Source: Eubacteriales bacterium (lineage in GTDB: Bacteria > Bacillota > Clostridia > Oscillospirales > QAKW01). From it: 64,000 nucleotides of DNA. The stretch's first letter is position 1. Each line of letters begins with the position of its first letter. A program made the translations under genes and the position numbers. The stretch spans positions 4,136 to 68,135 of the forward strand of contig JAZQJG010000066.1 in NCBI GenBank assembly GCA_045541535.1, written 5' to 3'. The notes beneath the pieces were generated by a model that saw nothing but the letters and a program-made list of their open reading frames with translations, was not told the origin of the DNA and searched no databases. Shown here piece by piece: positions 13,704-26,716 of the stretch.

Positions 13704-13741
13704 AATAAAAATCTCCTTTTTATTAAGTTACATATATAATC

Positions 13742-13770
13742 ATTATAACAATTATTCTGTATAATTGCAA
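13742..13770 (-). promoter_or_regulatory. recA promoter (TTGCAA-17-TATAAT on the minus strand)
   Basis: Hexamers read from the reverse complement, ~40 nt upstream of the recA ATG. Confidence 0.55.
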
Positions 13771-13933
13771 CATCTATTTCTGCAAAATACGCAACAAATT
13801 TCATATTTTGCAGCCTTCCGTTGTATACAGGATATCACTCCATCTGTCCCATAGAACGGACAGGGGCAGCCTTTGCGTACAAATGCGCAGTTCGGAATTT
13901 CGGTAGCCTTTTGGCTTGTGCATAATTGTTCAC

Positions 13934-13969
13934 TAAAAAAACACTCTTGCCGGGCAAGAGTGTCTTTTC
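13934..13969. terminator. bidirectional hairpin terminator
   Basis: Stem acactcttgc-cgg-gcaagagtgt with an A7 tract upstream and cttttc downstream. Confidence 0.6.
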
Positions 13970-13970
13970 A

Positions 13971-14231
13971 GACTGTCAAAAAAGTCGTTTCATCACAGTG
14001 AAAAGCGAATCAAAAGAAAAAATGGTTTGTGGAGTCATAATAAACACAAGTCGTTTTTAATAATGGAAAGTCATCAAAGCAATTCCTTCTTTCCCTTGCG
14101 TTGCAAGGGATTCACTGTTTTCCGCTGCTACGCTCTCTACCGTACCCATGTACGCCGACGAGATCGCATCAGCGAAATGCAACGCCCTTTTTGGCAGTCT
14201 GCCAGCGTGTCAAAGAGGGTTCTTTGACACG
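13971..14231 (+). repeat. intergenic repeat family 1, full copy (~260 nt)
   Basis: Near-identical over most of its length to the reverse complement of 31524-31786. It contains conserved hairpins cccttgc-gt-tgcaaggg and gtgtcaaagag..ctttgacac. Confidence 0.85.
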
Positions 14232-14235
14232 CTGA

Positions 14236-14276
14236 CAAAAAGACAGGATTTTTCATCCTGTCTTTTTGTGTTTTTT
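14236..14276 (+). terminator. intrinsic terminator immediately 3' of the repeat copy
   Basis: Stem agacaggat-ttttc-atcctgtct, followed by tttttgtgtttttt. Confidence 0.75.
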
Positions 14277-14522
14277 GGGGGGCTTTACAGTCATTTTAAT
14301 ACATAAAAAAAGGGTGGTCAACGGGGCGGGAGGGGGAGATTTTGTTAATTTTGAATTTTTTTGCATATAGATATCCCGACGGCAGGGTTTACAAGCAAAA
14401 TAAAATGTGATACACTAAAAGATAATATAAATCAGGAAAAATCCAGCCCCCGGCGGCCGGAGAAAAGCGGGCGATTTTCCTGTGATATGCCGTCCCGACG
14501 GCAGGAGAAGAGAGGTAGACCG

Positions 14523-15629
14523 ATGGTAATTTTAGACGAGATCAAAATGAATCTGAGCGCCAAGGAGCCGGAGCTGAAAAACCTGAAAAAGGCCCTTGGA
14601 ATTGAGGAAAATCAAGGACGTTTGGCAGAGCTGGAAAAGCAGAGCGAGGCCCCCGATTTTTGGGACGATCTGGAAAACAGTCAGAAGGTATTGCGGGAGA
14701 TCAAGGGCATCAAAAACACCGCCGAGGAATATGCGGCATTGGAGAGCGCCTTTGAGGATATCGGCGCGATGATCGAGCTGGCCGAGGAGGAAGGCGAGGA
14801 GGATCTGGCAAGTGAGATTGCCGCCGAATACGCCGCCTTTGAGCAAAAGCTGGAGGCCGCCAGCCTGCAGGCCTTGCTGTCGGGGGAATATGACAAGAAC
14901 AACGCCATCCTCACCTTCCACGCCGGCGCCGGCGGCACCGAGGCCCAGGATTGGGCGGAGATGCTGTACCGTATGTACACCCGTTACGCCCAGCGCCACG
15001 ATTTCAAGATCACCGTGCTGGACTATCTGGACGGAGAAGAAGCGGGTATTAAGAGCGCTACCATTATGGTAGAGGGAATGTATGCCTACGGCTATCTTAA
15101 GTGCGAGATGGGCGTGCACCGTCTGGTGCGCTGTTCTCCCTTTGACTCCAGTGGCAGACGGCACACCTCCTTTGCTTCTCTGGAGGTTACCCCCGAGCTG
15201 GAAAACGACACCACCATTGAGATCGCCGACGACGACATCCGTGTGGACACCTATCGGGCCAGCGGCGCCGGCGGTCAGCACGTTAACAAAACCAGCTCCG
15301 CCATCCGGATCACCCATCTGCCCACCGGTATCGTGGTCACCTGCCAGAACGAGCGCAGTCAGCACAAAAACCGTGATATGGCCATGAAAATGCTGAAGAG
15401 TAAACTGTTGCAGATCAAGGAACGGGAGCATCTGGAAAAAATTGAGGATATCAAGGGCGATATGATGCAGATCGGCTGGGGCAGTCAGATCCGCAGTTAC
15501 GTATTTATGCCCTATACTCTGGCCAAGGATCACCGCACCGGCCACGAAAACGGCAACATCAACGCCGTTATGGACGGCGATATCGACGGCTTTATCACTG
15601 CCTCCCTGTTGGGCAAAACCGAGGAATAA
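14523..15629 (+). CDS. prfB: peptide chain release factor 2 (single ORF, no programmed frameshift)
   Basis: SPF tripeptide (RCSPFDS), GGQ ([11 protein letters not shown]) and PDFWDD near the N-terminus. The start is the ATG at 14523 after a GAGAGG RBS. Confidence 0.93.
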   Translation: MVILDEIKMNLSAKEPELKNLKKALGIEENQGRLAELEKQSEAPDFWDDLENSQKVLREIKGIKNTAEEYAALESAFEDIGAMIELAEEEGEEDLASEIAAEYAAFEQKLEAASLQALLSGEYDKNNAILTFHAGAGGTEAQDWAEMLYRMYTRYAQRHDFKITVLDYLDGEEAGIKSATIMVEGMYAYGYLKCEMGVHRLVRCSPFDSSGRRHTSFASLEVTPELENDTTIEIADDDIRVDTYRASGAGGQHVNKTSSAIRITHLPTGIVVTCQNERSQHKNRDMAMKMLKSKLLQIKEREHLEKIEDIKGDMMQIGWGSQIRSYVFMPYTLAKDHRTGHENGNINAVMDGDIDGFITASLLGKTEE

Positions 15630-15656
15630 ATCACAAAAATCAAGGACGTTAAAGTT

Positions 15657-16940
15657 ATGACGCTGATTGAATTTTTTGACGAAAACCGCATTGAAAACGT
15701 GGCCTGCGCTCTGATCTGTAAGGCGGAGCGGGTATATCTGCTGGGGGGCTCCCCTGCGGGACTGGCTGAGTATTGCAGACGGTATGGGGAGCTGACGGGT
15801 AAGGAATTTATTGCCCGCAGTATCAACCGCAGTAAGCTGACCGAAACGGTAAAAGAATTGGAAAAGCTGATCCACGAGATCCTTGCCGAGGATGAGGAAT
15901 GCGTGCTGGAGCTGGCCGGCGGAGACGATCTCTGTCTGGTGGCCGCCGGTATGGTGGCGGATCGGTTTGAGAGCGGGGTGCGTTTGTGTCGCACCAACGT
16001 TCCCCACAGCCGTATCGACACCTTTTATCCCGAGAGCAAGAGCTGCAGTGCACCCCTGCGACTGAGCATTGCGGAGAACGTGCGCATATACGGTGGCGGA
16101 TTGCATCTGACGGAGAACTGGGATCTGGAGGCTATCCGTCCCACCGCCGAGCTGTTGTGGAGTCTGGGAGAAGAATTTTCCGACTGGAACAGCCGTTGCG
16201 AGCTGATGGGGCGGATCCGCGCCAATTTCCCCGTGGATGCCAATAACAATCCTTTGACCGTGGAAGGGGACAAGACGGGCTATCTGCGCTTCGGCGGGCG
16301 GTTTTCCGATATTTGCAATCCCAATCATCTGGCCCGGCTGACCCGTGCCCAGTTGCAACAAGTGATCGAACTGTTGCAGGCCATCTGGCGGCGGCAGGGG
16401 GAGGAAAATCAGGTATTGCGTTCCCTGTTGGTGGATGAGCAGGCGGGGCTGTTGTATGCGGAATTTGCAAGTGAGAGCGCCAAGCGCTTGCTGGACAAAG
16501 CGGGTCAGGTGCTGGAGGTCTGGCTGGCCTGTCAGCTCAAAGAACTGAAGGAGCCCAAGGCCAAGGTGGGCGGTCCCTTTTTCCAGGATATCTGCGTGGG
16601 CGCAGAGCTGGATTGGGACGGTGTGGCCGAGCCGGACAATTTGCCCGACGTCAATAACGAGATCGACGTTATGGCCATGCGGGGAATGATCCCCATCTTT
16701 ATTTCCTGCAAAAACGGCAAGGTCAAAACAGAGGAGTTGTACAAACTCTCCCACGTGGCCGAGCGCTTTGGCGGGGAATATGCCAAAAAGCTGTTGGTGG
16801 CCCGCTCTCTGGGAGCGGAGGACAACGCCGAGATCAGCTTTGAAAAGCGGGCCAAGGAGATGGGCATCCATCTTATAGAGTTGGACGAACTGGAAAATAC
16901 ACAGCAACTGCTGTGGGAAATACAAAAACATTGTATGTAG
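15657..16940 (+). CDS. Card1-like (DUF1887) protein: CARF-like N-domain + PD-(D/E)xK nuclease-like C-domain
   Basis: The N-terminus ENVACALICKAERVYLLGG ... LELAGGDDLCLVAAG is Rossmann/CARF-like. The C-terminus NEIDVMAMRGMIPIFISCKNGK fits the DUF1887 restriction-endonuclease-like signature. Confidence 0.65.
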   Translation: MTLIEFFDENRIENVACALICKAERVYLLGGSPAGLAEYCRRYGELTGKEFIARSINRSKLTETVKELEKLIHEILAEDEECVLELAGGDDLCLVAAGMVADRFESGVRLCRTNVPHSRIDTFYPESKSCSAPLRLSIAENVRIYGGGLHLTENWDLEAIRPTAELLWSLGEEFSDWNSRCELMGRIRANFPVDANNNPLTVEGDKTGYLRFGGRFSDICNPNHLARLTRAQLQQVIELLQAIWRRQGEENQVLRSLLVDEQAGLLYAEFASESAKRLLDKAGQVLEVWLACQLKELKEPKAKVGGPFFQDICVGAELDWDGVAEPDNLPDVNNEIDVMAMRGMIPIFISCKNGKVKTEELYKLSHVAERFGGEYAKKLLVARSLGAEDNAEISFEKRAKEMGIHLIELDELENTQQLLWEIQKHCM

Positions 16941-16952
16941 AGGAGAAAAAAT

Positions 16953-17420
16953 ATGGGACTCAACAAAAGTGATCTGATCTTTGCCGCACTGCAGGCGGCG
17001 CTCAACAAAATTGATTGGAAGTACCGTGTACGGGAAAACAGCAGAATGATCGTCAGCGGTATGAGAGGGGACGATCTGCCCATTGACGTAAAGATCGACG
17101 TCAGAGAGGATATGGAGACCATTCTTTACGTTTCCGTCCTGCCCTTTGAGGTACCGGCTGAAAAGCGTATGGAGATGTGTACGGCCCTCAACGTCACCAA
17201 CTACGTATTAAGGGACGGTTGCTTTTCCATGGATATGGCCGACGGCAACGTGTTGTTTAAGCTGACCACCTGCTATCACGATTGTAACGTGGGAATGGGT
17301 CTGTACGTCCATTATCTGGAGCGTATGTGCGCCACGGTGGATCATTTTGACCGCAAATTGTACGAGCTGTCCACCGGTGAGATCACCTTGAAGGATTATA
17401 TTGCTTTTGTGATGGAATAA
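16953..17420 (+). CDS. YbjN-like (T3SS-chaperone-like) domain protein
   Basis: 155 aa. The pattern ..ILYVSVLPFEVPAEKRMEMCTALNVTNYVLRDGCFSMDMADGNVLFKLT is typical of the YbjN family as I recall it. Confidence 0.55.
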   Translation: MGLNKSDLIFAALQAALNKIDWKYRVRENSRMIVSGMRGDDLPIDVKIDVREDMETILYVSVLPFEVPAEKRMEMCTALNVTNYVLRDGCFSMDMADGNVLFKLTTCYHDCNVGMGLYVHYLERMCATVDHFDRKLYELSTGEITLKDYIAFVME

Positions 17421-17424
17421 AAAC

Positions 17425-18327
17425 GTGACCGGAGAAGAAATCTATCAAACAATAGAGGCGGCCTTGGTACAGAGAAACTGTACCGTTCGGCGGCAACAGG
17501 TATACGGTGTGCAATGGCTGGAAGCCGTGCGAAGGTCGGGGGATAGCGTAAGGGTGCAGTACTTGCAGTGGGAGAACGTATCGGAACTGGAGTTTACCGT
17601 TGCGTTGGCCACCCCGATCAAAAAGGAAAATACGGTTACGACCTGTGTGTTGGCCTCCCGCCCCCTCTACCCGTTCACCGTGGAAGGGAATCGGGTTTTG
17701 TACCGTCGGCGGTTTGCGTTGTCGGAGCCGGTGGACACCGAATATCTTATCCGCGCTCTGGAACGGATGTGGGCGGTTACGGATCGGTACGTTTGGTATT
17801 TTGCGGCGGTGGACGTTACGGCACAGCCAAAGCAGGTGTTGCCGGAGGATTTGCCGCCCATCAGCCATTCGTCAGACCGTCTGCAGGAGGCGGATTCCGA
17901 GAACTTTGTGGGCCTTGGGGAGGCATTTGAACAGGCAGGCTGTTACGTGGAAGCGCGGGACGGCCGCTTTGCCGCCACCCCGGAGGGCGGCTTTCCGTAT
18001 ATGGTATATCGGGAGCCGGAGTCGGCACAGTTGCGCATCTGCTATCGATTGGGGCGGATCCCACGGCACAAGCGGGCGGCGGCCTGCGTCCTTCGTTGCG
18101 CCCTGCAACGGGAGATGGAGGGCCTTTATCTGCAATTTGACGTGGATGATGGGACGTTGGAGCTTTGTTATGAGTTACCCTACTACGCCGCCCCGGAAAA
18201 TGATTTCATCGCCTTGGTTTTGAAAAGACTCTTTCGGCAACGTCGGAGGACAACGCGCTTTTTTAACCGATTAAACGACGGTTGTCCCCTGGGGGAGCTG
18301 TTGGAGGAACTGGGAGGTTTGGGATGA
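17425..18327 (+). CDS. hypothetical protein, apparently two YbjN-like modules
   Basis: GTG start 4 nt after the upstream stop. The second half, RICYRLGRIP..CALQREMEGLYLQFDVDDGTLELCYEL, repeats the YbjN-like pattern. Confidence 0.5.
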   Translation: MTGEEIYQTIEAALVQRNCTVRRQQVYGVQWLEAVRRSGDSVRVQYLQWENVSELEFTVALATPIKKENTVTTCVLASRPLYPFTVEGNRVLYRRRFALSEPVDTEYLIRALERMWAVTDRYVWYFAAVDVTAQPKQVLPEDLPPISHSSDRLQEADSENFVGLGEAFEQAGCYVEARDGRFAATPEGGFPYMVYREPESAQLRICYRLGRIPRHKRAAACVLRCALQREMEGLYLQFDVDDGTLELCYELPYYAAPENDFIALVLKRLFRQRRRTTRFFNRLNDGCPLGELLEELGGLG

Positions 18328-19220
18328 GCGCCAACGAACAACTGCTGGAATGTTTTGGAAAAGTATTGGCAGAACAAGGAATTTATTGCAGATTGGAGCA
18401 TTCTGCGTTGGTGGGGAGCGAGCCCTATCCCGTGTTGGTGCGGGCGGAGGGGTATTCGCTGAACGTTCGCATCGGCTACGGCCCCGCCAACGGACGGCAG
18501 CATTACGTGAAAACGGCGGTGCAATTGGCACGGGCCGGCGCATTTTGCGACACCGGCGGCACCTTTTGCCAAACAGAGGCGGCAGCGCCGGAATATCGCC
18601 GTACCTTTGTTTTTATCTACGATCCTACGCCGGACGTGCTGGAGGCTTGGGCGGAACAGCTTTTGCGCATTATGCATGGGTTTCGCGGCTTTATTTATGA
18701 GGGCAAGCCCATTGCATATCTGCCCGATCAACCCTTACGTTATAACGACAATCCCGAATTTTTGGGGCGGCTGGCACGGCGTAATATGCAACGGATGAAG
18801 CGATTTTTGATACAAGAGGACTTGCCCGCCACCGAACGGGACAATATGCTGGGCTGTGCCCTGCCGGAGGGAAGCGTTTTTACGATACAGCCAAACGTCA
18901 ACGGACAGTTTTTGCTGGTGAGCAGTCAACGGATTGACGTTCCCGATCATAAACTGGCATTGGCGGCGGCCTTTCAGGCCTTGCTCAATACCCGTATCGA
19001 GCCCTTTTACGTGGACACCCATCTGGAGGAGGGCTGGTTGCGGCTCTGCCTGACGCTGGATTATGCCGGTGGCACCCCCATCGCCTCGGAGAAGATGACC
19101 CTGTTGCGGGAATTTTCGGAAACGACGGAGCGGTTGAAGGAACTGTACAACACGCTGTTTCGGGAGGAAACGGACGTGCGTGCCCTGTGGCAAAGCATAT
19201 ATAACAGTGGACTGAAATAA
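18324..19220 (+). CDS. hypothetical protein, apparently two YbjN-like modules
   Basis: The ATG at 18324 overlaps the upstream TGA (ATGA coupling). The C-terminal half, ..ALLNTRIEPFYVDTHLEEGWLRLCLTLDY, is YbjN-like. Confidence 0.5.
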   Translation: MSANEQLLECFGKVLAEQGIYCRLEHSALVGSEPYPVLVRAEGYSLNVRIGYGPANGRQHYVKTAVQLARAGAFCDTGGTFCQTEAAAPEYRRTFVFIYDPTPDVLEAWAEQLLRIMHGFRGFIYEGKPIAYLPDQPLRYNDNPEFLGRLARRNMQRMKRFLIQEDLPATERDNMLGCALPEGSVFTIQPNVNGQFLLVSSQRIDVPDHKLALAAAFQALLNTRIEPFYVDTHLEEGWLRLCLTLDYAGGTPIASEKMTLLREFSETTERLKELYNTLFREETDVRALWQSIYNSGLK

Positions 19221-19230
19221 AGGAGAGGCT

Positions 19231-19764
19231 ATGTATACACCCCAACCCACCAAAACCGACCATATCACCCTGCCCGAAACGCTGTTACCCCTGCGGGAAA
19301 AGCTGGCGGAAAACGTCCATCGGGTATGGATGGAGACCCGCCTGTCCCAGGGCTGGCGCTATGGCCCCCGTCGGGACGACGAGCAACTGACCCATCCGGG
19401 GCTGGTGCCCTACGGGGAGTTGTCCGAATCGGAAAAGCGGTTTGATCGGGCCACCGCGCTGGGGACTCTTCGGCTGATTTTGGCGCTGGGCTATCGGATA
19501 ATTGCCGATGAGCAGACCGAGGGATTTCCGCCTGAGCTCTACCAACTGCAGGAGCAGATTGCCGAGGATATCCACGACATCTGGTCCAAGGGACGGCTGG
19601 AGCAGGGCTGGCGTTACGGCCCGGCGCGCAATGATGAAACGAAGGAGCACCCCTGTCTGGTGCCCTACGAGGAGCTCAGCGAGGAGGAAAAGGAATACGA
19701 CCGCCGTACCGCCTTTGAGACCTTATCCCTGATCCTTGCATTAGGTTATAAAATTTATAAATAA
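19231..19764 (+). CDS. tandem RyR (ryanodine-receptor repeat) domain protein
   Basis: Two internal repeats: AENVHRVWMETRLSQGWRYGPRRDDEQLTHPGLVPYGELSESEKRFDR..ILALGYRI and AEDIHDIWSKGRLEQGWRYGPARNDETKEHPCLVPYEELSEEEKEYDR..ILALGYKI. Confidence 0.75.
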   Translation: MYTPQPTKTDHITLPETLLPLREKLAENVHRVWMETRLSQGWRYGPRRDDEQLTHPGLVPYGELSESEKRFDRATALGTLRLILALGYRIIADEQTEGFPPELYQLQEQIAEDIHDIWSKGRLEQGWRYGPARNDETKEHPCLVPYEELSEEEKEYDRRTAFETLSLILALGYKIYK

Positions 19765-19772
19765 CGAGTAAG

Positions 19773-19805
19773 ACCGCCGTGGGAACGCCACGGCGGTTTT
19801 TTATT
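19773..19805 (+). terminator. intrinsic terminator after the RyR gene
   Basis: Perfect 10-bp stem accgccgtgg/ccacggcggt followed by T6. Confidence 0.8.
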
Positions 19806-19807
19806 TG

Positions 19808-19836
19808 TTGACAGTATATCAATAAAATTATATAAT
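19808..19836 (+). promoter_or_regulatory. consensus sigma-A promoter TTGACA-17-TATAAT
   Basis: Both hexamers are perfect with a 17-nt spacer, 40 nt upstream of the 19877 ATG. Confidence 0.7.
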
Positions 19837-19876
19837 TGTTCTATATATTGACAAATTCTGCAAAGGAAGTGCTTGT

Positions 19877-22800
19877 ATGAATAAAAGTAAAGCTTTAAGG
19901 GCAATGATGCTGACCGCTCTGCGCCGCACGGCGGCCTCCGGTATTTATAAAATTACGCCGGAGCAATTTTTACTTTGTGTGGCGGAGATCGATACGCTGA
20001 ACGCCGATTCGGAAGTGATGCGGGCGGTGGATCTGCTACGTCACAGGGCGGAGAATTTTGAGCGTTTTCAACAGGCACTGCAATATTTTCTTCGTTTAAA
20101 GCAGGGAGAGCCTGCGGAATTTGACGAGGCGCTGGAGCGTGCCGAAGAGAGAAGTCAGGCGGCGGAAAAAACGGAACTGACGCTGGATGCGCTGGTGGAG
20201 GAAATCCTGGAGGAGCCCGGCCGTAACGTGGGCTTTGCTCTGCTGTGTGAAGAAGCGGAGCTGGAATTGTTGCGGGCAGAACTGGAAGAGGAGGCGCAAG
20301 GGGCGTCTTCCGGCCGGGAGCGCACGGATGAGGAACTGTTGCAACTGCTGGAACGGTTACATCAGGTGGAACAGGAGGAAATGGCGGAGCTGATGGGAGC
20401 TCTCAATCCGGCGGATCTGGAACGGTTGGGCGAACTGCTTACCGAGCAGCATCCGGAGGTTTTGGAGGAGGATCCGGACCGTACCTATACCGATGAGGAA
20501 CTGTGGGCGCTGTGGGAGCAAATGGACGAAGCGGACGGCGACGAGGTAGACCGTGTTTTGGAGAGTTTGCCCCCCGCGGATCTGAAGCGTCTGGTGGAAC
20601 TGATTGAGGAAAAGCGAGAGGATCTGCTCACCGAACTGGCGGTGGATTTGGCAAATATGGAAGAAAAGGCGAAGGCGGAGGATTCCGCATCCGAGCTTTC
20701 GGTGGAGGAAAAGGCGAAACGTGCCATTCTCACCCTGGACCGTATGATGAAACAGGGGGATCACGTGGGGGCCTTCACAATGATCCAGAACACCGAGCCG
20801 CCCGTGGCTATGGAGATCATTTCTTTGATGCAACAGGCCGGTATGTTGGAGGAGGATGCCGCCGAGCAGTTGCGATATGCGCTGGGCGGCGAGGAAGCCC
20901 TGCAACAGAAACCCGAAGATATGGAAGAAAACAAAGGAGCCGAGGAGCCCCGTGCAACGGGCAAACTCTCGGACTTTTTGGCAGAGCTTTTGGGCACCGC
21001 CATGGCAGAGGCTGAAGAAGTGCTTGGGGAGGAGACCGAACAGGTGATCACCGAGAAAGAGGAGGCGGCAGACGTTGACGCCATCACCCGACTGGTGACC
21101 CGTGTCAACGACATTCGCACCAAGCTCCTTGGCAAGGTATTTGGTCAGGAGCACGCCGTGGACGTGTGTGTGACCGGTTTGTTTAATGCGGAGTTTGCCG
21201 CCCTCACCGGTCACGAGACCAACAAGCCCCGGGCCACCTTCCTCTTTGCCGGACCTCCCGGCGTGGGTAAGACCTATCTGGCTGAATCTATGGCTGAGCT
21301 GATGGGACTGCCCTATCTGCGGGTGGATATGAGCGAGTTTGGTAATTATCACGGCTCCGAGCGCTTTAGAAACGTTCTTCAATTCGTGAAGGAAAAGCCC
21401 AAAAGCGTTATTTTGTTTGACGAGATCGAGAAGGCCAACGGCGAGGTTATCAATCTGTTTTTGCAGATTCTGGACGCCGGCAGAGGCGGCGAGGCGCCCC
21501 GTGCGGTCAGCTTTGCCGAGACCTATCTCTTTTTTACCACCAACGTGGGTCGGGGGCTGTACGAGGGCACCGATCAGACCGATCTCTCCGGCAACAGCCG
21601 CAAGGTGATCCTGCGGGCCTTGGAGCAGGAGATCAATCCCCAGACCCGTCAGCCTATGTTCCCGGCGGCCATCTGTTCCCGCTTTGCCACCGGTAACGTG
21701 GTGATGTTCAATCACCTGCCCGCCCACCAGCTTTGTCGCATTGCCAAGGACGTGATCCTGCGGCGGGCAGAGGGTGTGGCCAACAAGATGAATCTGCAGG
21801 CGGAATTCGACCCTGCCGTTTTTTCCACCGTTCTTTTTGCCCAGGGCGGTCGGGCCGACGGCCGTACGGTAACCGCCTGTGCCAACGCCTTCTTTGAGGG
21901 TGAGCTGTACGAGCTGTTCCGTATGGTCCACAGCAAGGCGGAGGACAAGAAGATCGGCAACATCCGTCGGGTGCGCTTTACCCTGGAAATGCCCGAGGAT
22001 GAAGAACTCCGCAAGCTGTACGTGGCAGAGGAAAAAATGAAGGTGCTGATGTTTGCCGATTCCCTGACCGGCGCCCTGCAACGCCCTGCCTGTAACCAAT
22101 GTGAAATTCTGACCGTGGATAATATTCCCCAGATGGAGCTGCTGTTGGCCACCGAGCCCATCCGTCTGGTGCTGTGCGATATTTCCTACGGTTTTAAAAC
22201 CAGTGATTATCTCAACACCGAGGATTGCAGCTCCCGTGGACGGGATTGCTTTAAAAGACTGCGGGAGCGGCATCCCGCTTTGCCCGTTTATCTGCTCCAC
22301 GACGGTTTGAGTGACGAGGAAAAGGTTTCCTTTACCCGTGAAGGGGCCAGAGGATTTTTTGAGAAAACTGCCATCCATCATCCGGAGACCATGACGGCCT
22401 TGGACGAGATCGCCCTGCAGCTTCATCAGCAGGAGAGTATGTACGCCCTGGCCAGTACCAATCGTATGGTGGATTATGAAACGGCCCAGCGGATCTCCGA
22501 GGACGGCGAGAGCTGTGAGATCCGTATCTTTGATCTGTGCACTCGGGTCAACGTGGACGCCGAGGATCGCGACAGCGTGCTCTCCGCCTTGGAAAAACCG
22601 GACGTAAACTTCGCCGACGTGATCGGCGCCAAGGATGCCAAGGAAGAACTGCAGTTCTTTGTCAATTACCTGCGGGATCCCAAGGCCTTCCGCAAAAGCG
22701 GGACCAAGGCGCCCAAAGGCGTTCTGCTCTACGGCCCTCCCGGCACCGGTAAGACTATGCTGGCCAAGGCCATGGCCAACGAATCCGGCGTCACCTTTAT

Positions 22801-23920
22801 TGCCAGTGAGGGCAACGCCTTTTTGAAAAAATGGGTGGGCGAGGGCCCGCAAAAGGTGCACGAGCTGTTTGCCACCGCCCGTAAATATGCGCCCGCCATT
22901 ATTTTCGTGGACGAGATTGACGTGATCGGCAAGGAGCGCTCGGGAGACGACGGCACCGGCTACAAGCCTGACGATATTCTCACCGCGTTTCTGGCCGAGA
23001 TGGACGGCTTTGCCGCCAACCCCGACAAGCCGGTCTTTGTACTGGCCGCCACCAATTACAGCGTGGAGGCGGGCAATGCCAAGAGTCTGGACGGAGCGCT
23101 GTTGCGGCGCTTCGACCGGCGGATCCTGGTGGATCTGCCGGATAAGGAGGAACGGTTGCGCTATCTTAAACTGCGCACCGAAAAGGATACCTTCTTTAAG
23201 GTCAGCCAGGCGCAACTGGAGAGTCTGGCCGCCCGTTCGGCGGGGATGAGCCCCGCTTTGCTGGAGGGTGTGCTGGAAATGGCCAAGAGAGAAGCTCTCA
23301 AGGACGGCGCTTCCGCAGTGGACGACAATATGCTGGACCGTGCCTTTGAGACCTACAACAGCGGAGAGGAAAAGGTGTGGAATCCCGATCAGCTGGAGCG
23401 GGTGGCCTATCACGAGGCAGGACACGCCTTGCTGAGCTGGCTGGCGGGGGACAAGCCCACCTACATCACCATCGTGGCCCGTGGCAATCACGGCGGCTAT
23501 ATGCAACACGGTGATAACGAGGGCAAGGCCATCTTCACCAAGGATGAATTGTTGGCGCGCATTCGCACCTCTTTGGGTGGACGGGCCGCCGAACTGCTAC
23601 ATTACGGCGACAAAGACGGCGTAACCACCGGCGCCTCCGGTGATCTGGCCTCGGCCACCGAGCTTGCTACCCATCTGGTTTGCTCCTACGGTATGGACGC
23701 CGACTTCGGTCTGGCGGTGATTTCCCCCGAAGCGGCCTATAAGGGCGGCTTGGCGGAAGAAATCCGCGCCACCGTTAACGTCTTGCTTCAGGAACAGTTG
23801 ACCCGGGCCATCGGGCTGTTGCAGGAGCATCAGAACAAACTGGAGGCTATGGTGGAGCGCTTGTTGGACTGCAACCACCTGACTGCCGAAAAAATCGAGC
23901 AGATCTTTGCTGAAAATTAA
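19877..23920 (+). CDS. soluble dual-AAA+ metalloprotease chimera (acidic N-region, Clp-D2-like AAA+, receiver-like domain, FtsH-type AAA+ and M41 peptidase)
   Basis: Walker A FAGPPGVGKT and Walker B VILFDEIEKA, preceded by GQEHAV (Clp D2 style). Second Walker [11 protein letters not shown] and Walker B IIFVDEIDV. Zn motif HEAGH and GASGDL are present. There is no hydrophobic TM segment, unlike the canonical ftsH at 40733. Confidence 0.8.
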   Translation: MNKSKALRAMMLTALRRTAASGIYKITPEQFLLCVAEIDTLNADSEVMRAVDLLRHRAENFERFQQALQYFLRLKQGEPAEFDEALERAEERSQAAEKTELTLDALVEEILEEPGRNVGFALLCEEAELELLRAELEEEAQGASSGRERTDEELLQLLERLHQVEQEEMAELMGALNPADLERLGELLTEQHPEVLEEDPDRTYTDEELWALWEQMDEADGDEVDRVLESLPPADLKRLVELIEEKREDLLTELAVDLANMEEKAKAEDSASELSVEEKAKRAILTLDRMMKQGDHVGAFTMIQNTEPPVAMEIISLMQQAGMLEEDAAEQLRYALGGEEALQQKPEDMEENKGAEEPRATGKLSDFLAELLGTAMAEAEEVLGEETEQVITEKEEAADVDAITRLVTRVNDIRTKLLGKVFGQEHAVDVCVTGLFNAEFAALTGHETNKPRATFLFAGPPGVGKTYLAESMAELMGLPYLRVDMSEFGNYHGSERFRNVLQFVKEKPKSVILFDEIEKANGEVINLFLQILDAGRGGEAPRAVSFAETYLFFTTNVGRGLYEGTDQTDLSGNSRKVILRALEQEINPQTRQPMFPAAICSRFATGNVVMFNHLPAHQLCRIAKDVILRRAEGVANKMNLQAEFDPAVFSTVLFAQGGRADGRTVTACANAFFEGELYELFRMVHSKAEDKKIGNIRRVRFTLEMPEDEELRKLYVAEEKMKVLMFADSLTGALQRPACNQCEILTVDNIPQMELLLATEPIRLVLCDISYGFKTSDYLNTEDCSSRGRDCFKRLRERHPALPVYLLHDGLSDEEKVSFTREGARGFFEKTAIHHPETMTALDEIALQLHQQESMYALASTNRMVDYETAQRISEDGESCEIRIFDLCTRVNVDAEDRDSVLSALEKPDVNFADVIGAKDAKEELQFFVNYLRDPKAFRKSGTKAPKGVLLYGPPGTGKTMLAKAMANESGVTFIASEGNAFLKKWVGEGPQKVHELFATARKYAPAIIFVDEIDVIGKERSGDDGTGYKPDDILTAFLAEMDGFAANPDKPVFVLAATNYSVEAGNAKSLDGALLRRFDRRILVDLPDKEERLRYLKLRTEKDTFFKVSQAQLESLAARSAGMSPALLEGVLEMAKREALKDGASAVDDNMLDRAFETYNSGEEKVWNPDQLERVAYHEAGHALLSWLAGDKPTYITIVARGNHGGYMQHGDNEGKAIFTKDELLARIRTSLGGRAAELLHYGDKDGVTTGASGDLASATELATHLVCSYGMDADFGLAVISPEAAYKGGLAEEIRATVNVLLQEQLTRAIGLLQEHQNKLEAMVERLLDCNHLTAEKIEQIFAEN

Positions 23921-23927
23921 CCCTGTT

Positions 23928-23950
23928 CCCGACGGGCCTCGCCCGTCGGG
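23928..23950 (+). other. GC-rich stem-loop between the protease and membrane-protein genes (no U-tract)
   Basis: Perfect 10-bp stem cccgacgggc-ctc-gcccgtcggg followed by GGAAAGGA (the RBS of the next gene). Confidence 0.5.
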
Positions 23951-23964
23951 GGAAAGGATATGAT

Positions 23965-26499
23965 ATGCAACAGTTTTTAGAAGCCTTTTTGGCACTTCTC
24001 GGCAAGAAAACCTATCCGGCAGAGCCAAAGGTGATGCTGATCACCACGGCCCTGTCCCTGCTGGTGTTGGCGCTGGCCATCGGCATTGCGCTCAAACGAC
24101 GCAAGCCCACCGGCGGCAAGCCTTTTCCCTTTTCCCGTGGCATCGTATCGGTGGCTCTCATTGCCTTTTCGGTGTTTATCTACGTATTTCCCTTGCAGAT
24201 GTACGTGTATCTGGGAGATTATCAAGGGGAATGGGATCTGGGAGCGGCTATTGCGCTGGCCCTTTACGAAACGGTCCGTGTCTTTCTGGTGGGCGCCGAT
24301 TTTAACTTTGTGAAGGATGCCGTCAGCACCAGCTCCGATATTTTGCAGAGCTTTTGCGTGATTTACGGCGGCCTGCTGTATGCCTTGGCTCCGATGATGA
24401 CCATCGGCTTTGTGCTCTCTATGTTCAAGGATTTCTGGGCGCAGGTGCGCTTTATGATGCCCCGGTATTTCCGTACCACCTATTACGTTTTTTCCGAACT
24501 CAACGAGCGCTCTCTGGCCCTGGCCACCAGCATCTGCCGGCAATACCATTCTCCCTGGGACAGATGGTTTAGGGGGGCAAAGACTGCCTCTTTAAATGCG
24601 GCACAGCCCGTGGAGCAACCCACGCCTTACGAAGCGCAGGGCGAACTGCTGAAGAGCGTGCAGGCACAACTGGCACAGGTGGAAAAGAGGCTGCGGGAGG
24701 CGACGGGGGATGAAAAGCGGGATTCGCTTACGGTCCAACGGCAACAATTGCTGGAATTGGAGCAGACGCATCGGCATATTTTGGAAAACGCTCCGCAAGA
24801 GGTGCGGGTAAAATACCTGAAGGAAGAAGACCGGGGTGCCGCCCGAAAGTCCTCGGTCAACCGGCGGAAGCCCTATTTCGGTAAGCCCATCATCGTGTTT
24901 ACCGACGTATACGTGCAAAACGAGGAGCGACCCTACGAGCTGACCGCCAGAGCCAGAGAATTGGGCGCTATCTGCCTGAAAAAGGATATTACCACCCTGA
25001 ACGTACATAAACGGTGGAACGGTGTGGAGTTTTACGTCATAGGCGAGAACGAATCGGAAAATCTGCATCACGCCTTGCATCTGGTGGAGCAATGCGCCCA
25101 GCGTCCGGTAAAGGTGCGCCGCAGAGTGTATATCTTCGCTCGCACCGAAACGGCGGCCCATATCATTGATTCGGCCCAAGGACAGGAGTTGACGGAACTG
25201 CGGGAGCAGTTAAAAGAATCCTTTGCAAAAAATGAAGAAAAATTTGCCGCCAACACAGAGGATCCCGGCCTGATCAAGGCCAATATTCAAAAAATGCTGC
25301 AGGCCCATCAACGGATGAGCGACGAGCGGCTTATGATCCGCAGGGTGGACGACGTGCAACTGTTGGTACTGCGCACTTTGAGGCAGGCAAAGCTCTTTGA
25401 ATCCGCCAAAAGCACCGGCAAGATCTGTATCACCGTGGCCGGTATGGGCGAATACGGCAGAGCCTTTGTTAAAACCGCCCTGTGGTTTTGCCAGACCGAG
25501 GATTATTTTCTGGAGCTCAACGTGATTGATGAAAACGGTGATGCCCAGCAACGGCTGTGGCACGAATGCCCCGAGCTGATGGCCCGTAACGGCGTCGTTG
25601 AGGCAGGGGAGGCCCGTTACAGTATGCGGTTTTTCAGCGGTGTCAACTGCTTTGACAAAACGCTGGACGAATTGCTGGAGGGCAAGAAGGGCTTTACCGC
25701 AGAGGATGCCGCCCGTCTGGGCCGCACCACCCATCTGTTTATCGCCTTGGGCGACGATGATCGCAATATTGAGGCGGCAATGATGTTCCGCAATCGCTTT
25801 GATCGCCTGCGGGGCTTTCGGGCCAATAAGAAGATCAAACCGGAAGAGGAAACTCTTGCCATCTATGCCGTGGTCTACGACGATCAAAAGGCGCACAATC
25901 TGGATATTTCCGAGAATGACAAGCAGACGCTGATCAACCACGAGAGCATCCCTTATAATATCAATTTCATCGGCAGTATGAGTGAGCAATATCGGTACGA
26001 CTTTTTCCACGACGACGAGGAGGAGCATCGGGCCTTTGCCTATCATATGGATTGGGCGGCCTCGGAATTTGCCATCCGTCTGGCAGAAGCCCGCAGGCAG
26101 GGCGCCGTGGCGGTGGATCTTACCTATTTGGATCAGTTGTCCGACCCCGAAGAAGCCTATCAAGATATTATGAAATACGAGCAGTACGAGTATTATCGGG
26201 AGTCCTCCCTGGCCAAGATGCACCATCGAGAAGCCAGTCTGGATGCCATGCCCAAACGACTGCTTTGTCACTACGTCTTACCCACGGAAACGCCGGAAAG
26301 ACGGCGACAGGTGAAACCCTACGTTGGCTGTCAGTGTGAGAACTGTCAGCGCCGCCGTCGCAGTGAGCATATGCGCTGGAACGCCTATATGCGCGCCCAG
26401 GGCTACGTTTTCGGTCCCCGCAAGGCCACCCGCGGCAAGGTCCACGCAGATCTCAAGCCCTTTGCCGGGCTACCCCTTCACGAGCAGCTTAAGGATTAA
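23965..26499 (+). CDS. membrane protein with Rossmann-like (TrkA-N-like) central region and C-terminal RyR-like domain
   Basis: About 4 N-terminal hydrophobic segments, a coiled-coil-like stretch and a glycine loop ICITVAGMGEYG. The C-terminus SEHMRWNAYMRAQGYVFGPRKATRGKVHADLKPFAGLPLHEQ resembles the RyR repeat of the 19231 gene. Confidence 0.65.
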   Translation: MQQFLEAFLALLGKKTYPAEPKVMLITTALSLLVLALAIGIALKRRKPTGGKPFPFSRGIVSVALIAFSVFIYVFPLQMYVYLGDYQGEWDLGAAIALALYETVRVFLVGADFNFVKDAVSTSSDILQSFCVIYGGLLYALAPMMTIGFVLSMFKDFWAQVRFMMPRYFRTTYYVFSELNERSLALATSICRQYHSPWDRWFRGAKTASLNAAQPVEQPTPYEAQGELLKSVQAQLAQVEKRLREATGDEKRDSLTVQRQQLLELEQTHRHILENAPQEVRVKYLKEEDRGAARKSSVNRRKPYFGKPIIVFTDVYVQNEERPYELTARARELGAICLKKDITTLNVHKRWNGVEFYVIGENESENLHHALHLVEQCAQRPVKVRRRVYIFARTETAAHIIDSAQGQELTELREQLKESFAKNEEKFAANTEDPGLIKANIQKMLQAHQRMSDERLMIRRVDDVQLLVLRTLRQAKLFESAKSTGKICITVAGMGEYGRAFVKTALWFCQTEDYFLELNVIDENGDAQQRLWHECPELMARNGVVEAGEARYSMRFFSGVNCFDKTLDELLEGKKGFTAEDAARLGRTTHLFIALGDDDRNIEAAMMFRNRFDRLRGFRANKKIKPEEETLAIYAVVYDDQKAHNLDISENDKQTLINHESIPYNINFIGSMSEQYRYDFFHDDEEEHRAFAYHMDWAASEFAIRLAEARRQGAVAVDLTYLDQLSDPEEAYQDIMKYEQYEYYRESSLAKMHHREASLDAMPKRLLCHYVLPTETPERRRQVKPYVGCQCENCQRRRRSEHMRWNAYMRAQGYVFGPRKATRGKVHADLKPFAGLPLHEQLKD

Positions 26500-26511: not shown

Positions 26512-26540
26512 TTGACAAAAATTCGGGCCCTCATTATAAT
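26512..26540 (+). promoter_or_regulatory. consensus sigma-A promoter TTGACA-17-TATAAT
   Basis: Perfect hexamers with a 17-nt spacer, directly upstream of the riboswitch. Confidence 0.7.
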
Positions 26541-26549
26541 ATTAATAGT

Positions 26550-26716
26550 GATTCCCAATGAGGGAGTAGCAACCGTCCGTCGGACGGAGTTCGGTCAACA
26601 ATCGGCATTTTGCCTGGCCGACTTTAAACTGCGAGACTCATGTATGATCCTTTCGACGTACATCGGTCGGCTAAAACATCCAAACCCGTGTACACTAAAG
26701 GTGTACGCGGGTTTTT
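26550..26716 (+). promoter_or_regulatory. yybP-ykoY (Mn2+) riboswitch with terminator expression platform
   Basis: AAUGAGGGAGUAGC (26557-26570), GGUCAACAAUCGGCAU and UUUAAACUGCGAGACUCAU match the conserved cores. P1 is aatgag/ctcat. The terminator aaacccgtgtacac-taaag-gtgtacgcgggttt plus T5 lies at 26682-26716. Confidence 0.7.

Follow-up and report, generated by a model that had tools for sequence, protein, structure and literature searches.

The FtsH proteases (MEROPS M41; TIGR01241), which include the mitochondrial i-AAA and m-AAA enzymes, carry a classical-clade AAA+ module fused directly to an M41 domain with the HExxH motif. The protein investigated here, which we call BIG, is built in the same way and shares with them the aromatic-Val-Gly pore loop, the SRH arginines, and the third-ligand Asp motif. 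To our knowledge, all characterized FtsH-type proteases are membrane-anchored. In contrast, BIG had neither the N-terminal TM helices nor the periplasmic domain of FtsH, its ~900 extra N-terminal residues contained a second ATPase and a receiver fold, and it scored 370 bits against an FtsH_fam cut-off of 600 bits. The Clp/Hsp100 unfoldases (ClpA, ClpB, ClpC, and ClpV) share with BIG a D2-type module (HCLR clade, AAA_2) that contains Walker A/B, sensor-1, an Arg finger, and the sensor-2 "DAR" motif. The N-domain of BIG is Clp_N-like as well, and the two-tier motor that we infer above its protease chamber resembles ClpA-ClpP or ClpC-ClpP. Unlike them, BIG has no D1 and reverses the ring order of Hsp100, as its classical-clade ring follows the D2-type one, and its protease is a covalently fused metalloprotease instead of ClpP. 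The Clp pore loop GYVGY is replaced by ..VYK.. in the BIG family, and BIG scored far below every Clp equivalog cut-off.

In enhancer-binding proteins of the NtrC1, DctD, NtrX, and LuxO type, as in BIG, a CheY fold covalently adjoins an AAA+ module. The receiver controls assembly of the AAA+ ring in such proteins, and this gating is established for NtrC1/DctD-type activators. In BIG, however, the receiver is flanked by an AAA+ module on each side, and the acidic pair and conserved Lys/Thr found in phospho-accepting receivers are missing from it. Neither a DNA-binding domain nor a sigma-54 interaction motif is present. Type VI secretion offers a possible parallel in its PpkA-Fha1-ClpV1 circuit, where genetic coupling links a Clp-type AAA+ ATPase with an FHA protein and a Hanks kinase. 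In some loci, kinase and FHA genes are likewise linked to BIG, a Clp-type ATPase with a Clp_N-like N-domain. The two differ in that ClpV has D1 plus D2 and BIG includes a protease, and T6SS genes were not seen at any BIG locus. The FtsH-containing MoxR-vWA ternary systems, embedded in putative conflict systems, likewise include an FtsH-type AAA+ protein that departs from the canonical form and has two ATPase domains (Kaur, Burroughs, Iyer and Aravind 2020, eLife, PMC7159879). Their proteins possess two FtsH-type domains, the first inactive, and the systems are defined by the MoxR-vWA pair (PMC7159879). Unlike BIG, they are described there with no Clp-D2 module, receiver, or YbjN/RyR partners, and no MoxR or vWA genes were seen in the BIG loci examined.

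The BIG Gene and Its Cluster

In the window (the whole 64,000-nucleotide stretch of DNA analyzed), the BIG ORF was found with exactly the coordinates and length given in a preliminary description, and all sequence motifs quoted there occurred in its translation. The ORF starts with ATG. Its promoter matched the sigma-70 consensus at 12 of 12 positions and sits just downstream of the strong terminator that closes the preceding unit (table 1). A long antisense ORF (20357-23509, 1050 aa) overlaps BIG. The codon-usage score favored the plus-strand ORF, and BIG homologues were also accompanied by antisense shadow ORFs.

Table 1. Coordinates of the genes, signals, and BIG domains in the window
Feature	Position	Strand	Basis or remarks
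Card1-like PD-(D/E)xK nuclease, 427 aa, possibly CARF-like N-terminal half	15657..16940	+	Pfam Card1_endonuc, E=6.5e-8
YbjN-family (type-III-secretion-chaperone-like) protein, 155 aa	16953..17420	+	Pfam YbjN, E=1.9e-5; family HMM E=3e-56
Two orphan ORFs lying between YbjN and RyR, 300 and 312 aa	17425..19220	+	
Protein of two RyR domains, 177 aa	19231..19764	+	Pfam RyR, E=2.8e-60, two copies
Intrinsic terminator, end of upstream unit (Card1-like ... RyR)	19770..19800	+	13-bp stem, 8 G-C pairs, then T-run
Promoter of the BIG / 844-aa transcription unit	19808..19836	+	TTGACA-17-TATAAT
BIG ribosome-binding site	19862-19869		AAAGGAAG; 7 nt 5' of ATG at 19877
BIG, 1347-aa soluble Clp_N / D2-AAA+ / pseudo-receiver / FtsH-AAA+ / M41 protease	19877..23920	+	
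Clp_N-like N-domain, aa 1-125	19877..20251	+	AF2 model pLDDT >90
Acidic all-helical insert, aa ~126-400	20252..21076	+	25-30% Asp+Glu
Clp-D2 (HCLR-clade) AAA+ module and small domain, aa 405-704	21089..21988	+	Pfam AAA_2, TIGR ClpA/ClpB/ClpV D2 alignments
Receiver-fold (pseudo-receiver) domain, aa 720-835	22034..22381	+	
Long helix and beta-hairpin linker before second ATPase, aa 836-895	22382..22561	+	
FtsH-type classical AAA+ module, aa 905-1160	22589..23356	+	Pfam AAA, FtsH_fam, PDB FtsH matches
M41 zinc metalloprotease domain, aa 1171-1343	23387..23905	+	Pfam Peptidase_M41, E=1.1e-35
Partner protein, 844 aa, four TM-like segments, GxGxxG region, C-terminal RyR-like motif	23965..26499	+	

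The gap between BIG and the 844-aa gene was 44 nt and contained a hairpin without a T-run; the two genes are probably co-transcribed. The TM-like segments of the 844-aa protein lie at residues 19-45, 54-84, 92-110, and 129-154, its RyR-like match was weak (residues 801-841, E = 1.4e-4 in a small search), and its family (~60 clusters) consists entirely of hypothetical proteins. Upstream, the 427-aa nuclease matched the PADLOC model CARF4--CARF_PDDEXK (E = 4.8e-20). The two orphan ORFs had no Pfam, NCBIfam, or PADLOC match and no homologue in the 90 other loci analyzed, and were not significantly YbjN-like; the first scores low for coding potential by codon usage. The cluster sits among housekeeping genes, between prfB and a P-type ATPase gene. 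The annotated ORFs around it include no integrase or other mobility marker, and those adjoining it no histidine kinase. Neither a CRISPR array nor a cyclase was found in the window.

Domain Architecture and Conservation

From the N-terminus, BIG comprises a Clp_N-like domain, an acidic helical insert, a Clp-D2 AAA+ module, a receiver fold, a helix with a beta-hairpin, an FtsH-type AAA+ module, and an M41 domain. The preliminary description had placed two AAA+ modules and an M41 protease in one chain without TM segments, and both points held: the AAA+ modules, which belong to different clades, and M41 were matched in Pfam, NCBIfam, and PDB, and no TM-like segment was detected (highest 19-residue Kyte-Doolittle mean, 1.21). 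For the first module, matches were obtained with Pfam AAA_2 of the Clp D2 type (residues 451-568, E = 2.2e-22), with NCBIfam ClpA (377-631, E = 4.3e-36), whose alignment falls on the D2 part of the model, and with TIGR ClpV1 (358-653, E = 7.1e-27). The second was matched by Pfam AAA (949-1086, E = 7e-52) and NCBIfam FtsH_fam (905-1340, E = 1.8e-110), and in PDB the cytosolic region of FtsH was matched (4ww0, against 906-1344, E = 2.4e-75).

We found that Walker A and B, sensor-1, the Arg finger, and sensor-2 were invariant at both ATPase sites in all 114 family sequences, namely K465, D515/E516, N556, R602, and R663 in the D2 module and K959, D1012/E1013, T1059, R1078, and F1079 in the FtsH-type module. 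The pore-loop residue W986 of the latter was aromatic in 88 of the 114. In the protease domain, H1179 of HEAGH (1179-1183) was invariant, the two His and the Glu of this motif were at least 90% conserved, and so was the third-ligand motif TGASGDL with D1256. The D2 pore-loop segment of the window protein keeps F497 and has 13 residues fewer than is usual in the family; because of this shortening, the first ring may grip substrate poorly, and it could serve mainly in assembly or regulation.

The preliminary description had also noted a CheY-like segment with a non-canonical acidic pocket, and structure and conservation agreed on this. An AF2 model of residues 640-905 reached a pLDDT of 91.8, and its top 50 PDB matches were receiver (REC) domains only (probability 1.00), with the receivers of NtrC1, NtrX, and LuxO among the best; Pfam Response_reg did not reach its threshold (E = 0.007; 16.9 bits, with the cut-off at 30.2). 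Among the 114 family sequences, D768, at the position of CheY D57, was Asp in 106, while the D12 position was never acidic and the K109 position was not conserved. A family-specific LNxED motif (N780, E782, and D783) and R789 were conserved. We therefore regard the domain as a pseudo-receiver, since of the CheY site it retains only the D57-equivalent Asp, plus the LNxED motif. Classical Asp phosphorylation is unlikely, because receivers throughout the family have neither the acidic pair that binds Mg2+ nor the conserved Lys. In the linker that follows, DSSP assigned a helix to residues 197-221 and strands to residues 224-234 and 240-252 of the 640-905 model, and the motif ...FETAQ..S.DG..A.I.LFDF.L..AVDAED was conserved across the family.

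About 430 N-terminal residues had been described as strongly acidic and helical. This stands for residues ~126-400, where the helical conformation is predicted at lower model confidence, and not for the first ~125 residues, which are modeled as a folded Clp_N-like domain. Foldseek matches to this model were almost all Clp/Hsp100 N-domains (target TM 0.55-0.67), with weak E-values of 0.05-2. Pfam Clp_N was matched in 5 of 29 aligned family N-termini and had no match in BIG itself. The acidic insert holds a tandem repeat of ~52 residues (146-197 and 202-253; alignment score 99 vs. 29.7 +/- 5.7 for shuffles). The insert is largely specific to the window protein; at its position, over half of the family shows gaps in the alignment.

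Distribution of the Family

An exhaustive profile search retrieved 256 BIG-family clusters at 50% identity among 1.84 billion representatives. At 90% identity, the architecture recurred in more than 110 clusters from independent assemblies, and it was present in at least 416 metagenomic stretches. The family was abundant in gut and rumen Clostridia, yet rare overall and patchy even within Clostridia. It was not found in viral contigs or PLSDB plasmids, and it has no description in the literature and no curated model. Judged from these sequences, BIG is a member of a conserved, uncharacterized family of gut bacteria. The earlier view of it as a chimera thus stands as regards its modules, not as regards a one-off fusion, and the independent clusters exclude a frameshift or assembly fusion. 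The separate, canonical membrane FtsH reported in the same window was also confirmed (40733-42673); it has TM-like segments at residues 4-32 and 104-133, and its identity to BIG is 36% across the 455 residues that the two share. N-terminal regions varied among family members: a Pkinase domain was fused to the BIG core in three proteins (P0276, P0311, and P0275), and one variant bears an RNase H1-type hybrid-binding domain.

Gene Neighbors in Other Loci

Neighbors were counted over 36 dereplicated groups of BIG loci. The commonest was the YbjN-like family, which lay within five genes of BIG in 19 of the 36 groups and within three genes in 13 of the 22 groups in which BIG is flanked by genes on both sides. 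These genes were mostly immediately adjacent (+/-1), on the same strand as BIG, and often in two or three tandem copies; many loci consisted of just BIG and a YbjN-like gene among ordinary genes. For YbjN proteins, two reports describe a type-III-chaperone-like, protein-binding fold (PMC5398634, PMC3575483). Homologues of the 844-aa partner adjoined BIG in nine groups, and small RyR proteins and Card1-like nuclease homologues (L001 included) each occurred nearby in six. The 844-aa family, and its pair with RyR, were also found without BIG. Pkinase and/or FHA genes were adjacent to BIG in L004, L089, L092, and L195, and sensor-type repeats (WD40/TPR) are present in the kinase partners of L089 and L195. 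In L092, BIG lies inside a TIR-rich island, among FHA-kinase ... TIR-STAND-NUDIX-HD-TIR-TIR genes. Some loci abut prophage or conjugation genes. No partner was universal: YbjN-like genes occurred in roughly half of the groups, and the other partners in no more than a quarter. This context suggests an accessory, signal-gated proteolysis module.

Function of BIG and Alternative Readings

We consider it fairly probable that BIG is an active, cytosolic, self-compartmentalized two-motor AAA+ zinc protease, regulated by its pseudo-receiver and an adaptor, that degrades proteins selectively within an accessory module. The preliminary description had likewise proposed regulated unfolding and degradation of specific targets, and this reading is strengthened by the invariant catalytic residues, the conserved adaptor-like partner, and the linkage to kinase and FHA genes.

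A dedicated role, in anti-phage defense or another conflict, is plausible, though we hold it to be doubtful. In such a defense module, BIG would serve as executioner or licensing protease and be switched on by a signal: a sensor (kinase/FHA, a CARF-like domain, or RyR proteins) would activate it upon infection, and it would degrade an inhibitor, or phage or host proteins, freeing the Card1-like nuclease, TIR, or membrane RyR effectors. The recurrent Card1-like CARF-nuclease relatives, the TIR-rich island of L092, the sensor-type repeats on kinase partners, the hybrid-binding variant, the rare and patchy distribution, and the adjoining prophage or conjugation genes all favor such a role. However, PADLOC matched BIG only through generic AAA+ similarity and to no known defense system, and the YbjN-like gene, not a recognized defense gene, is the commonest partner and often the only one. 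The absence of the family from viral contigs and plasmids, of CRISPR array and cyclase from the window, and of mobility genes around its cluster also speaks against it.

That BIG is instead a lineage-specific cytosolic quality-control protease, substituting for or supplementing Lon or ClpCP, seems improbable to us. It would remove soluble proteins that have misfolded or aggregated; the D2 ring would serve as a disaggregase-like front end, and the receiver fold would be a mere structural spacer. The complete and conserved catalytic machinery, an N-domain like that of ClpA, ClpB, and ClpC, a strong consensus promoter suggestive of constitutive expression, the chromosomal housekeeping surroundings, and the abundance in gut and rumen Clostridia would fit this role. 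On the other hand, the family's rarity is at odds with it, the conserved Asp768, LNxED, and Arg789 argue for a function of the receiver, the variable N-terminal regions suggest specific recognition, and recurrent fusion or linkage to kinase, FHA, nuclease, and TIR genes is unexpected for general quality control. Finally, a mis-assembled fusion of Clp and FtsH genes, or a decayed, non-catalytic scaffold, might be suspected from the unusual length and domain order, the antisense ORF, and the acidic insert specific to this protein, but is extremely improbable given the same contiguous architecture in hundreds of independent assemblies, the invariance of both ATPase sites and the first HExxH histidine, the proper promoter, RBS, and start codon, the codon-usage score, and the similar shadow ORFs of homologues.

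For the regulated, selective protease that we favor, analogy with Clp/Hsp100 and FtsH suggests a hexamer in which a Clp-D2-type ring is stacked on an FtsH-type ring, with the latter delivering substrate into the fused M41 chamber. In the window protein, the Clp_N-like domain, on its long acidic helical tether, would dock substrates or adaptors, and the small YbjN-type chaperone-like protein would be the likeliest adaptor, or else a regulated substrate. The pseudo-receiver between the two motors may act as a switch, placing ring assembly or coupling under the control of a signal. In several lineages this signal may be Ser/Thr phosphorylation, as the kinase is adjacent or fused. Such a phospho-switch is not directly transferable to the window locus, because no kinase or FHA gene occurs there; binding of a partner or ligand at the conserved Asp768/LNxED site would be the more likely signal. 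The module in this locus would also include the RyR-domain proteins, one of them membrane-anchored, and the Card1-like nuclease. Acting within an accessory module for stress or conflict, BIG would selectively degrade particular proteins, and the BIG family as a whole probably destroys chosen proteins upon a signal.

Domain Order and Catalytic Residues

BIG, the Clp-FtsH fusion protease, is encoded as had been claimed by an open reading frame of 1347 codons with an ATG start (table), and profile searches recovered all three catalytic modules named in the preliminary description. Pfam placed an AAA_2 domain of the Clp D2 type at residues 451-568 (E = 2.2e-22), a classical AAA domain at residues 949-1086 (E = 7e-52) and, immediately after the latter, Peptidase_M41 at residues 1171-1343 (E = 1.1e-35). 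The D2 halves of the NCBIfam ClpA, ClpB and ClpV models aligned to residues ~360-650, ending at 631-653, and ClpB_D2-small was not among the 25 Pfam families listed for BIG. No AAA+ match was found N-terminal to residue 377 in the Pfam and NCBIfam searches, so a D1 module is missing. The NCBIfam FtsH model (TIGR01241) covered residues 905-1340 (E = 1.8e-110) with its positions 154-598 only, and the score (370.5 bits) was below the 600-bit equivalog cut-off. Solved cytosolic regions of FtsH in the PDB matched residues 906-1344 (E = 2.4e-75). From the N-terminus, the order was a predicted Clp_N-like domain, an acidic tether, the D2-type AAA+, a putative pseudo-receiver, a helix and hairpin, the FtsH-type AAA+ and M41.

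The absence of transmembrane (TM) segments was borne out by a hydropathy scan, in which the maximum 19-residue mean of BIG was 1.21 and no segment was TM-like. The same scan found two TM-like segments in the second, canonical FtsH that had been reported in the window, and this protein was 36% identical to BIG across the common AAA-M41 region.

Conservation was counted in a 114-sequence family alignment. Walker A Lys465, Walker B Asp515/Glu516, sensor-1 Asn556, the arginine finger Arg602 and sensor-2 Arg663 of the D2 module were invariant (114/114), and Arg663 sits in a 'DAR'-type motif. Equally invariant were the Walker A/B and SRH residues Lys959, Asp1012/Glu1013 and Arg1078 of the FtsH-type module, its Thr1059 and Phe1079, and His1179 of the protease motif HEAGH (1179-1183). 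The His, Glu and second His of HExxH were each at least 90% conserved, as was the TGASGDL motif of the third zinc ligand with D1256. The FtsH pore-loop position (Trp986 in BIG) was aromatic in 88 of the 114 sequences. A deletion of the D2 pore loop was considered and ruled out, since the family alignment revealed only a 13-residue shortening of the segment carrying the pore-loop Tyr in relatives (..GSDKVYKN..), with the aromatic F497 retained. The ClpP-docking IGF/IGL loop of ClpA, ClpC and ClpX is not expected in BIG because the protease is fused. BIG is an intact soluble protein joining a Clp-D2-type ATPase, a receiver fold and an FtsH-type ATPase-protease, and this arrangement is conserved with full catalytic equipment.

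The N-terminal Region

Residues 1-404 were modelled with trimmed family N-termini (pLDDT 81.7, and >90 across the first ~130 residues). Foldseek searches with this model returned almost exclusively Clp/Hsp100 N-domains with high probabilities and target TM-scores of 0.55-0.67; the E-values of the same matches were weak (0.05-2) and the rmsd was high, the weak E-values being partly due to the ~280 insert residues that the query also carries. Among 29 N-termini aligned across the family, Pfam recognised Clp_N in five, and BIG itself was not one of these. We have moderate confidence, on the basis of the model, in a Clp_N-like N-domain. The N-terminal ~430 residues had been described as acidic and helical throughout; this holds for residues ~126-400, an all-helical insert with 25-30% Asp+Glu that is missing from most relatives, and not for the first ~125, which are predicted to form the folded Clp_N-like domain. 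Within the insert we found a ~52-residue tandem repeat (alignment score 99, compared with 29.7 +/- 5.7 for shuffles).

A Pseudo-receiver between the Two ATPase Modules

A CheY-like segment with a non-canonical acidic pocket had been proposed from the sequence, and both parts of this proposal stood. When residues 640-905 were modelled with an 88-sequence family alignment (pLDDT 91.8), the best 50 PDB matches were all response-regulator receivers, including PmrA, LuxO, NtrX, NtrC1, PhoP and CheY, with probability 1.00 and target TM-scores of about 0.7. In the model the receiver (residues ~720-835) comes after the D2-small domain and is followed by a long helix, a beta-hairpin and the FtsH-type module. 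Pfam Response_reg (PF00072) gave 16.9 bits (E = 0.007), below its gathering score of 30.2 bits.

Asp768, the equivalent of CheY Asp57 at the end of beta3, was Asp in 106 of the 114 aligned sequences. The CheY Asp12 position was A, G, S, T or K and never acidic, the Asp13 position was acidic in 49, the Lys109 position was variable, and the Thr87 region could not be aligned; BIG has A727, D728, H808 and K830 at its pocket positions. A family-specific LNxED insertion follows beta3, with Asn780 in 85, Glu or Asp at the Glu782 position in 105 and Asp783 in 94 of the 114 sequences, and Arg789 was conserved in 82. We therefore call the domain a pseudo-receiver, judging from its residues. Because the Mg2+-binding acidic pair after beta1 and the conserved Lys of beta5 are not kept across the family, and a conserved Thr/Ser of beta4 is also missing, classical Mg2+-dependent Asp phosphorylation appears unlikely for most members, while the conserved pocket argues for a functional role of the domain.

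Extent and Variants of the Family

Searching with residues 1-900 of BIG retrieved about 118 clusters, 1100-1250 aa in length, that share its AAA_2, AAA and M41 content, mostly from MAGs of Oscillospiraceae and other Clostridia, with a few from Blastocatellia, Desulfarculus and Pseudomonadota. Where their sources gave names, these were generic ('AAA family ATPase', 'cell division protease FtsH' and Clp ATP-binding subunit). Since the architecture recurs across the family clusters, an artificial fusion of two genes by a frameshift or assembly error, the refuting case named in the preliminary description, is excluded. When metagenomes were scanned with motifs specific to the family, taken from the portion of D2 after Walker B, at least 416 stretches were confirmed. 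A receiver-plus-linker HMM, run exhaustively against 1.84 billion representatives, matched 256 clusters at E <= 1e-10; therefore, the family is real but rare. It is common in human-gut and rumen Clostridia. In a scan of genome contigs most matches were ClpB picked up by generic Walker motifs, and only two loci (L006 and L007) belonged to the BIG family; no true member was found in IMG/VR viral contigs or PLSDB plasmids.

Several members carry further domains. In three long ones an N-terminal Ser/Thr kinase domain is fused to the BIG-type core, and another has an RNase H1-type hybrid-binding domain at its C-terminus. This terminal domain, of the RNase H1 N-terminal (Cauli_VI) type that binds both RNA-DNA hybrids and dsRNA, lies at residues 1366-1408 of cluster P0298 and is also present in P0102 (precomputed PF01693), which suggests that nucleic-acid sensing is coupled to a BIG-type protease in these lineages. 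Variants of 1500-1613 aa (L007 3674-8515 from a Roseburia MAG; clusters P0189 and P0193) are extended at the N-terminus by 400-700 residues that match nothing in Pfam and represent additional, uncharacterised modules on a BIG-type core.

The BIG Gene and Its Surroundings in the Window

Every gene in 15657-26499 is on the forward strand (table).

Features of the BIG gene and its surroundings (positions in the window)
Feature	Position	Strand	Remarks
Terminator	14235-14269		overlaps 5' part of RF2-type ORF
RF2-type release factor ORF	14361-15629	+	PCRF and RF-1 domains; listed from TTG, ~85 residues before PCRF
Promoter-like site	14388-14416		overlaps 5' part of RF2-type ORF
Card1-like PD-(D/E)xK nuclease	first gene of 15657-26499	+	PADLOC CARF_PDDEXK matches
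YbjN-family protein	16953-17420	+	after Card1-like gene
Two adjacent orphan ORFs	17425-19220	+	300 and 312 aa; between YbjN and RyR genes
Two-RyR-domain protein		+	upstream of terminator 19770-19800
Terminator	19770-19800	+	13-bp stem; ends upstream genes
Promoter TTGACA-17-TATAAT	19808-19836	+	perfect sigma-70 consensus; upstream of BIG
BIG	19877-23920	+	fusion protease
Antisense ORF	20357-23509	-	1050 aa; overlaps most of BIG
844-aa protein	23965-26499	+	44 nt after BIG; four TM-like segments, GxGxxG stretch, weak C-terminal RyR-like motif
Promoter	26512-26540	+	perfect sigma-70 consensus; P-type ATPase gene
P-type cation ATPase gene	ATG 26640 as annotated	+	perfect promoter upstream
Terminator-like hairpin	26682-26714	+	strong; 15-bp stem, then T-run; just within 5' end of P-type ATPase ORF
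Canonical FtsH	40733-42673		two TM-like segments
SLH protein	43035-49100	+	2021 aa; sole Pfam match C-terminal SLH domains
Gut-1 RNA (RF01706)	63708-63782	+	52 bits (gathering score 50); only Rfam match in window

With a ribosome-binding site (AAAGGAAG) 7 nt 5' of the ATG, the predicted expression signals of BIG are credible. Two promoters matching the sigma-70 consensus at 12 of 12 positions lie <7 kb apart; the scanned 13.4-kb region held 9 promoter-like sites against 7.1 expected, so their perfection and not their number is notable. The codon-usage score favoured the forward strand over the antisense ORF, which is thus most likely a non-coding shadow produced by codon bias. Comparable antisense shadow ORFs occur in homologues (1221 aa in L001 and 1964 aa in L095), and such long shadows over BIG genes misdirect gene callers that choose the longest ORF.

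The two orphan ORFs matched no Pfam, NCBIfam or PADLOC family and had no homologue in the 90 other loci, and the first of the pair (300 aa) had a low coding score; judged from sequence, it is uncertain whether they are real genes. Their reading as divergent tandem YbjN domains was unsupported (E = 0.006 and 0.035 when nine sequences were searched). The hairpin at the P-type ATPase gene would mean either that the true start is further downstream or that it is a leader or attenuator element. For RF2, the mechanically listed ORF may not reflect the real start or a programmed frameshift of the prfB type, and the SLH protein is probably a giant cell-surface protein. Together with the nearest homologues, the Gut-1 RNA match suggests that the window comes from a gut bacterium of the Clostridia, probably Oscillospirales-like.

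Neighbourhoods of the Relatives

Genes were called in 91 loci, including the window, with a home-made codon-usage score, the longest-ORF caller having been misled by the antisense shadows. BIG was found in 50 of them, forming 36 groups at 90% identity that are biased to gut Clostridia. Within five genes of BIG lay a YbjN-like gene (~157 aa) in 19 of the 36 groups, a member of the 844-aa family in 9, and a Card1-like gene and small RyR proteins in 6 each. The YbjN-like gene was mostly directly adjacent to BIG in the same orientation, at a distance of 12-200 nt, and was often repeated in tandem two or three times; of the 22 groups having genes on both sides, 13 had it no more than three genes away. 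Database gene calls gave the same neighbour sets in three loci (L001, L086 and L087). Genetic linkage joins BIG to a small chaperone-like protein and, varying from lineage to lineage, to RyR proteins, a Card1-like nuclease, Ser/Thr kinases and FHA proteins, or TIR proteins.

In two non-Clostridial loci (L089 and L195) the BIG gene runs at its end into an overlapping kinase-TPR-WD40 gene, after which come FHA and FHA-kinase genes. In locus L004 a kinase lies two genes upstream. Locus L092, with a Clostridial-type BIG, reads FHA, kinase, BIG, 844-aa family, HTH and RyR, then TIR-STAND, NUDIX, HD and more TIR. Its stretch downstream of BIG (11490-19953; JGI 3300001598) encodes TIR-STAND-TPR (1001 aa), NUDIX, HD, at least three TIR, TerB-like and FHA proteins, and a PcfJ-like gene is located upstream; this dense region resembles a defence island with several effectors directed against NAD+.

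The 844-aa family (P0121-P0182) comprises about 60 clusters, all hypothetical proteins and all from Clostridia. It is usually paired with a ~95-aa RyR-domain protein, and the pair was also found without any BIG gene (L090); it may be an independent two-gene module. In L002 (12106-19261), two giant genes of 1157 aa (unannotated) and 1222 aa (Tubulin_2) stand beside a YbjN-like gene and a homologue of BIG; the locus comes directly after tail and holin genes of a prophage. Two different loci (L086 323-4254 and L088 14078-17955) share, only a few genes from BIG, a trio made up of a ClpP-like protease, a ~540-aa protein lacking annotation and a TraG/VirD4-like coupling-protein homologue.

Comparison with Known Systems

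We found no description of this architecture in the full-text literature available without subscription, and PADLOC and NCBIfam hold no specific model for it. BIG is an uncharacterised AAA+ protease. It shares the catalytic core of FtsH but scores below the FtsH equivalog cut-off and, by the hydropathy scan, lacks the N-terminal anchor of two TM helices flanking an extracytoplasmic domain. With Clp/Hsp100 it has in common the D2-type AAA+ with sensor-2, but not the D1 module or equivalog scores, and the Hsp100 order of AAA+ clades is reversed. With CheY-like receivers it shares the fold, but not the phospho-chemistry residues or the Pfam gathering score. Assignment to the FtsH-containing ternary systems (Kaur et al. 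2020, PMC7159879) was rejected, since these combine two FtsH-type domains with a MoxR-vWA pair, unlike BIG.

Possible Function

By analogy with known machines, we consider the following general mechanism probable. Like Clp/Hsp100 and FtsH hexamers, BIG would form a hexamer in which two stacked motor rings feed the M41 chamber; its N-domain would recruit adaptors or substrates, as in Clp/Hsp100; and the pseudo-receiver would couple activity to a signal, as in receiver-gated AAA+ activators. In kinase-linked members the signal is plausibly Ser/Thr phosphorylation; the cluster in the window is without a kinase. Precedents for such a signal are response regulators phosphorylated by Hanks kinases and the PpkA-Fha1-ClpV circuit of type VI secretion.

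More doubtful is the possibility that BIG forms the core of a previously unrecognised immune or conflict system, proteolytic and gated by a phospho-signal or a ligand, with lineage-specific sensors, a pseudo-receiver switch and effector triggering. Its sensors would be WD40/TPR Ser/Thr kinases with FHA proteins in some lineages and RyR-domain, YbjN-like or CARF-like proteins in gut Clostridia. They would flip the pseudo-receiver, licensing the soluble two-ring Clp-FtsH machine to assemble, and the machine would degrade a specific inhibitor or invader protein, so that nuclease, TIR or membrane effectors are triggered.

A role of BIG dedicated to defence seems to us unlikely. PADLOC-DB v2 returned only generic AAA+ matches for BIG (IetA, DolB and TRIP13) and no defined defence system; among the neighbours it gave CARF_PDDEXK for the Card1-like protein, weak PDC-S05 matches for the RyR protein and nothing for the rest. 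NCBIfam IteA scored 131 bits on BIG against a 510-bit cut-off. An association with type III CRISPR was rejected, there being no array in the window and no cas genes among its annotated ORFs. A plain housekeeping role is very improbable, even though the wider window is chromosomal housekeeping (RecA, CysS, RF2, RNase J, GdpP, FtsH and the SLH protein).

The linkages of BIG (kinase/FHA, YbjN, RyR, Card1-like and TIR) suggest that its proteolysis is regulated and target-specific and serves in responses to stress or conflict. To our knowledge, every characterised FtsH-type (M41) protease is membrane-anchored, and it is mainly for this reason that BIG would surprise specialists. Unfoldase, regulator and protease are fused in one chain, and a conserved soluble M41 form, in which the anchor is replaced by a Clp-type ring and a receiver-fold switch, would widen the known designs of ATP-dependent proteases. 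If the conflict system were true, BIG would be the first FtsH-type protease that is soluble and the first AAA+ protease that is gated by a receiver. Moreover, for the poorly understood RyR and YbjN domains of bacteria, it is a possible entry point to their function.
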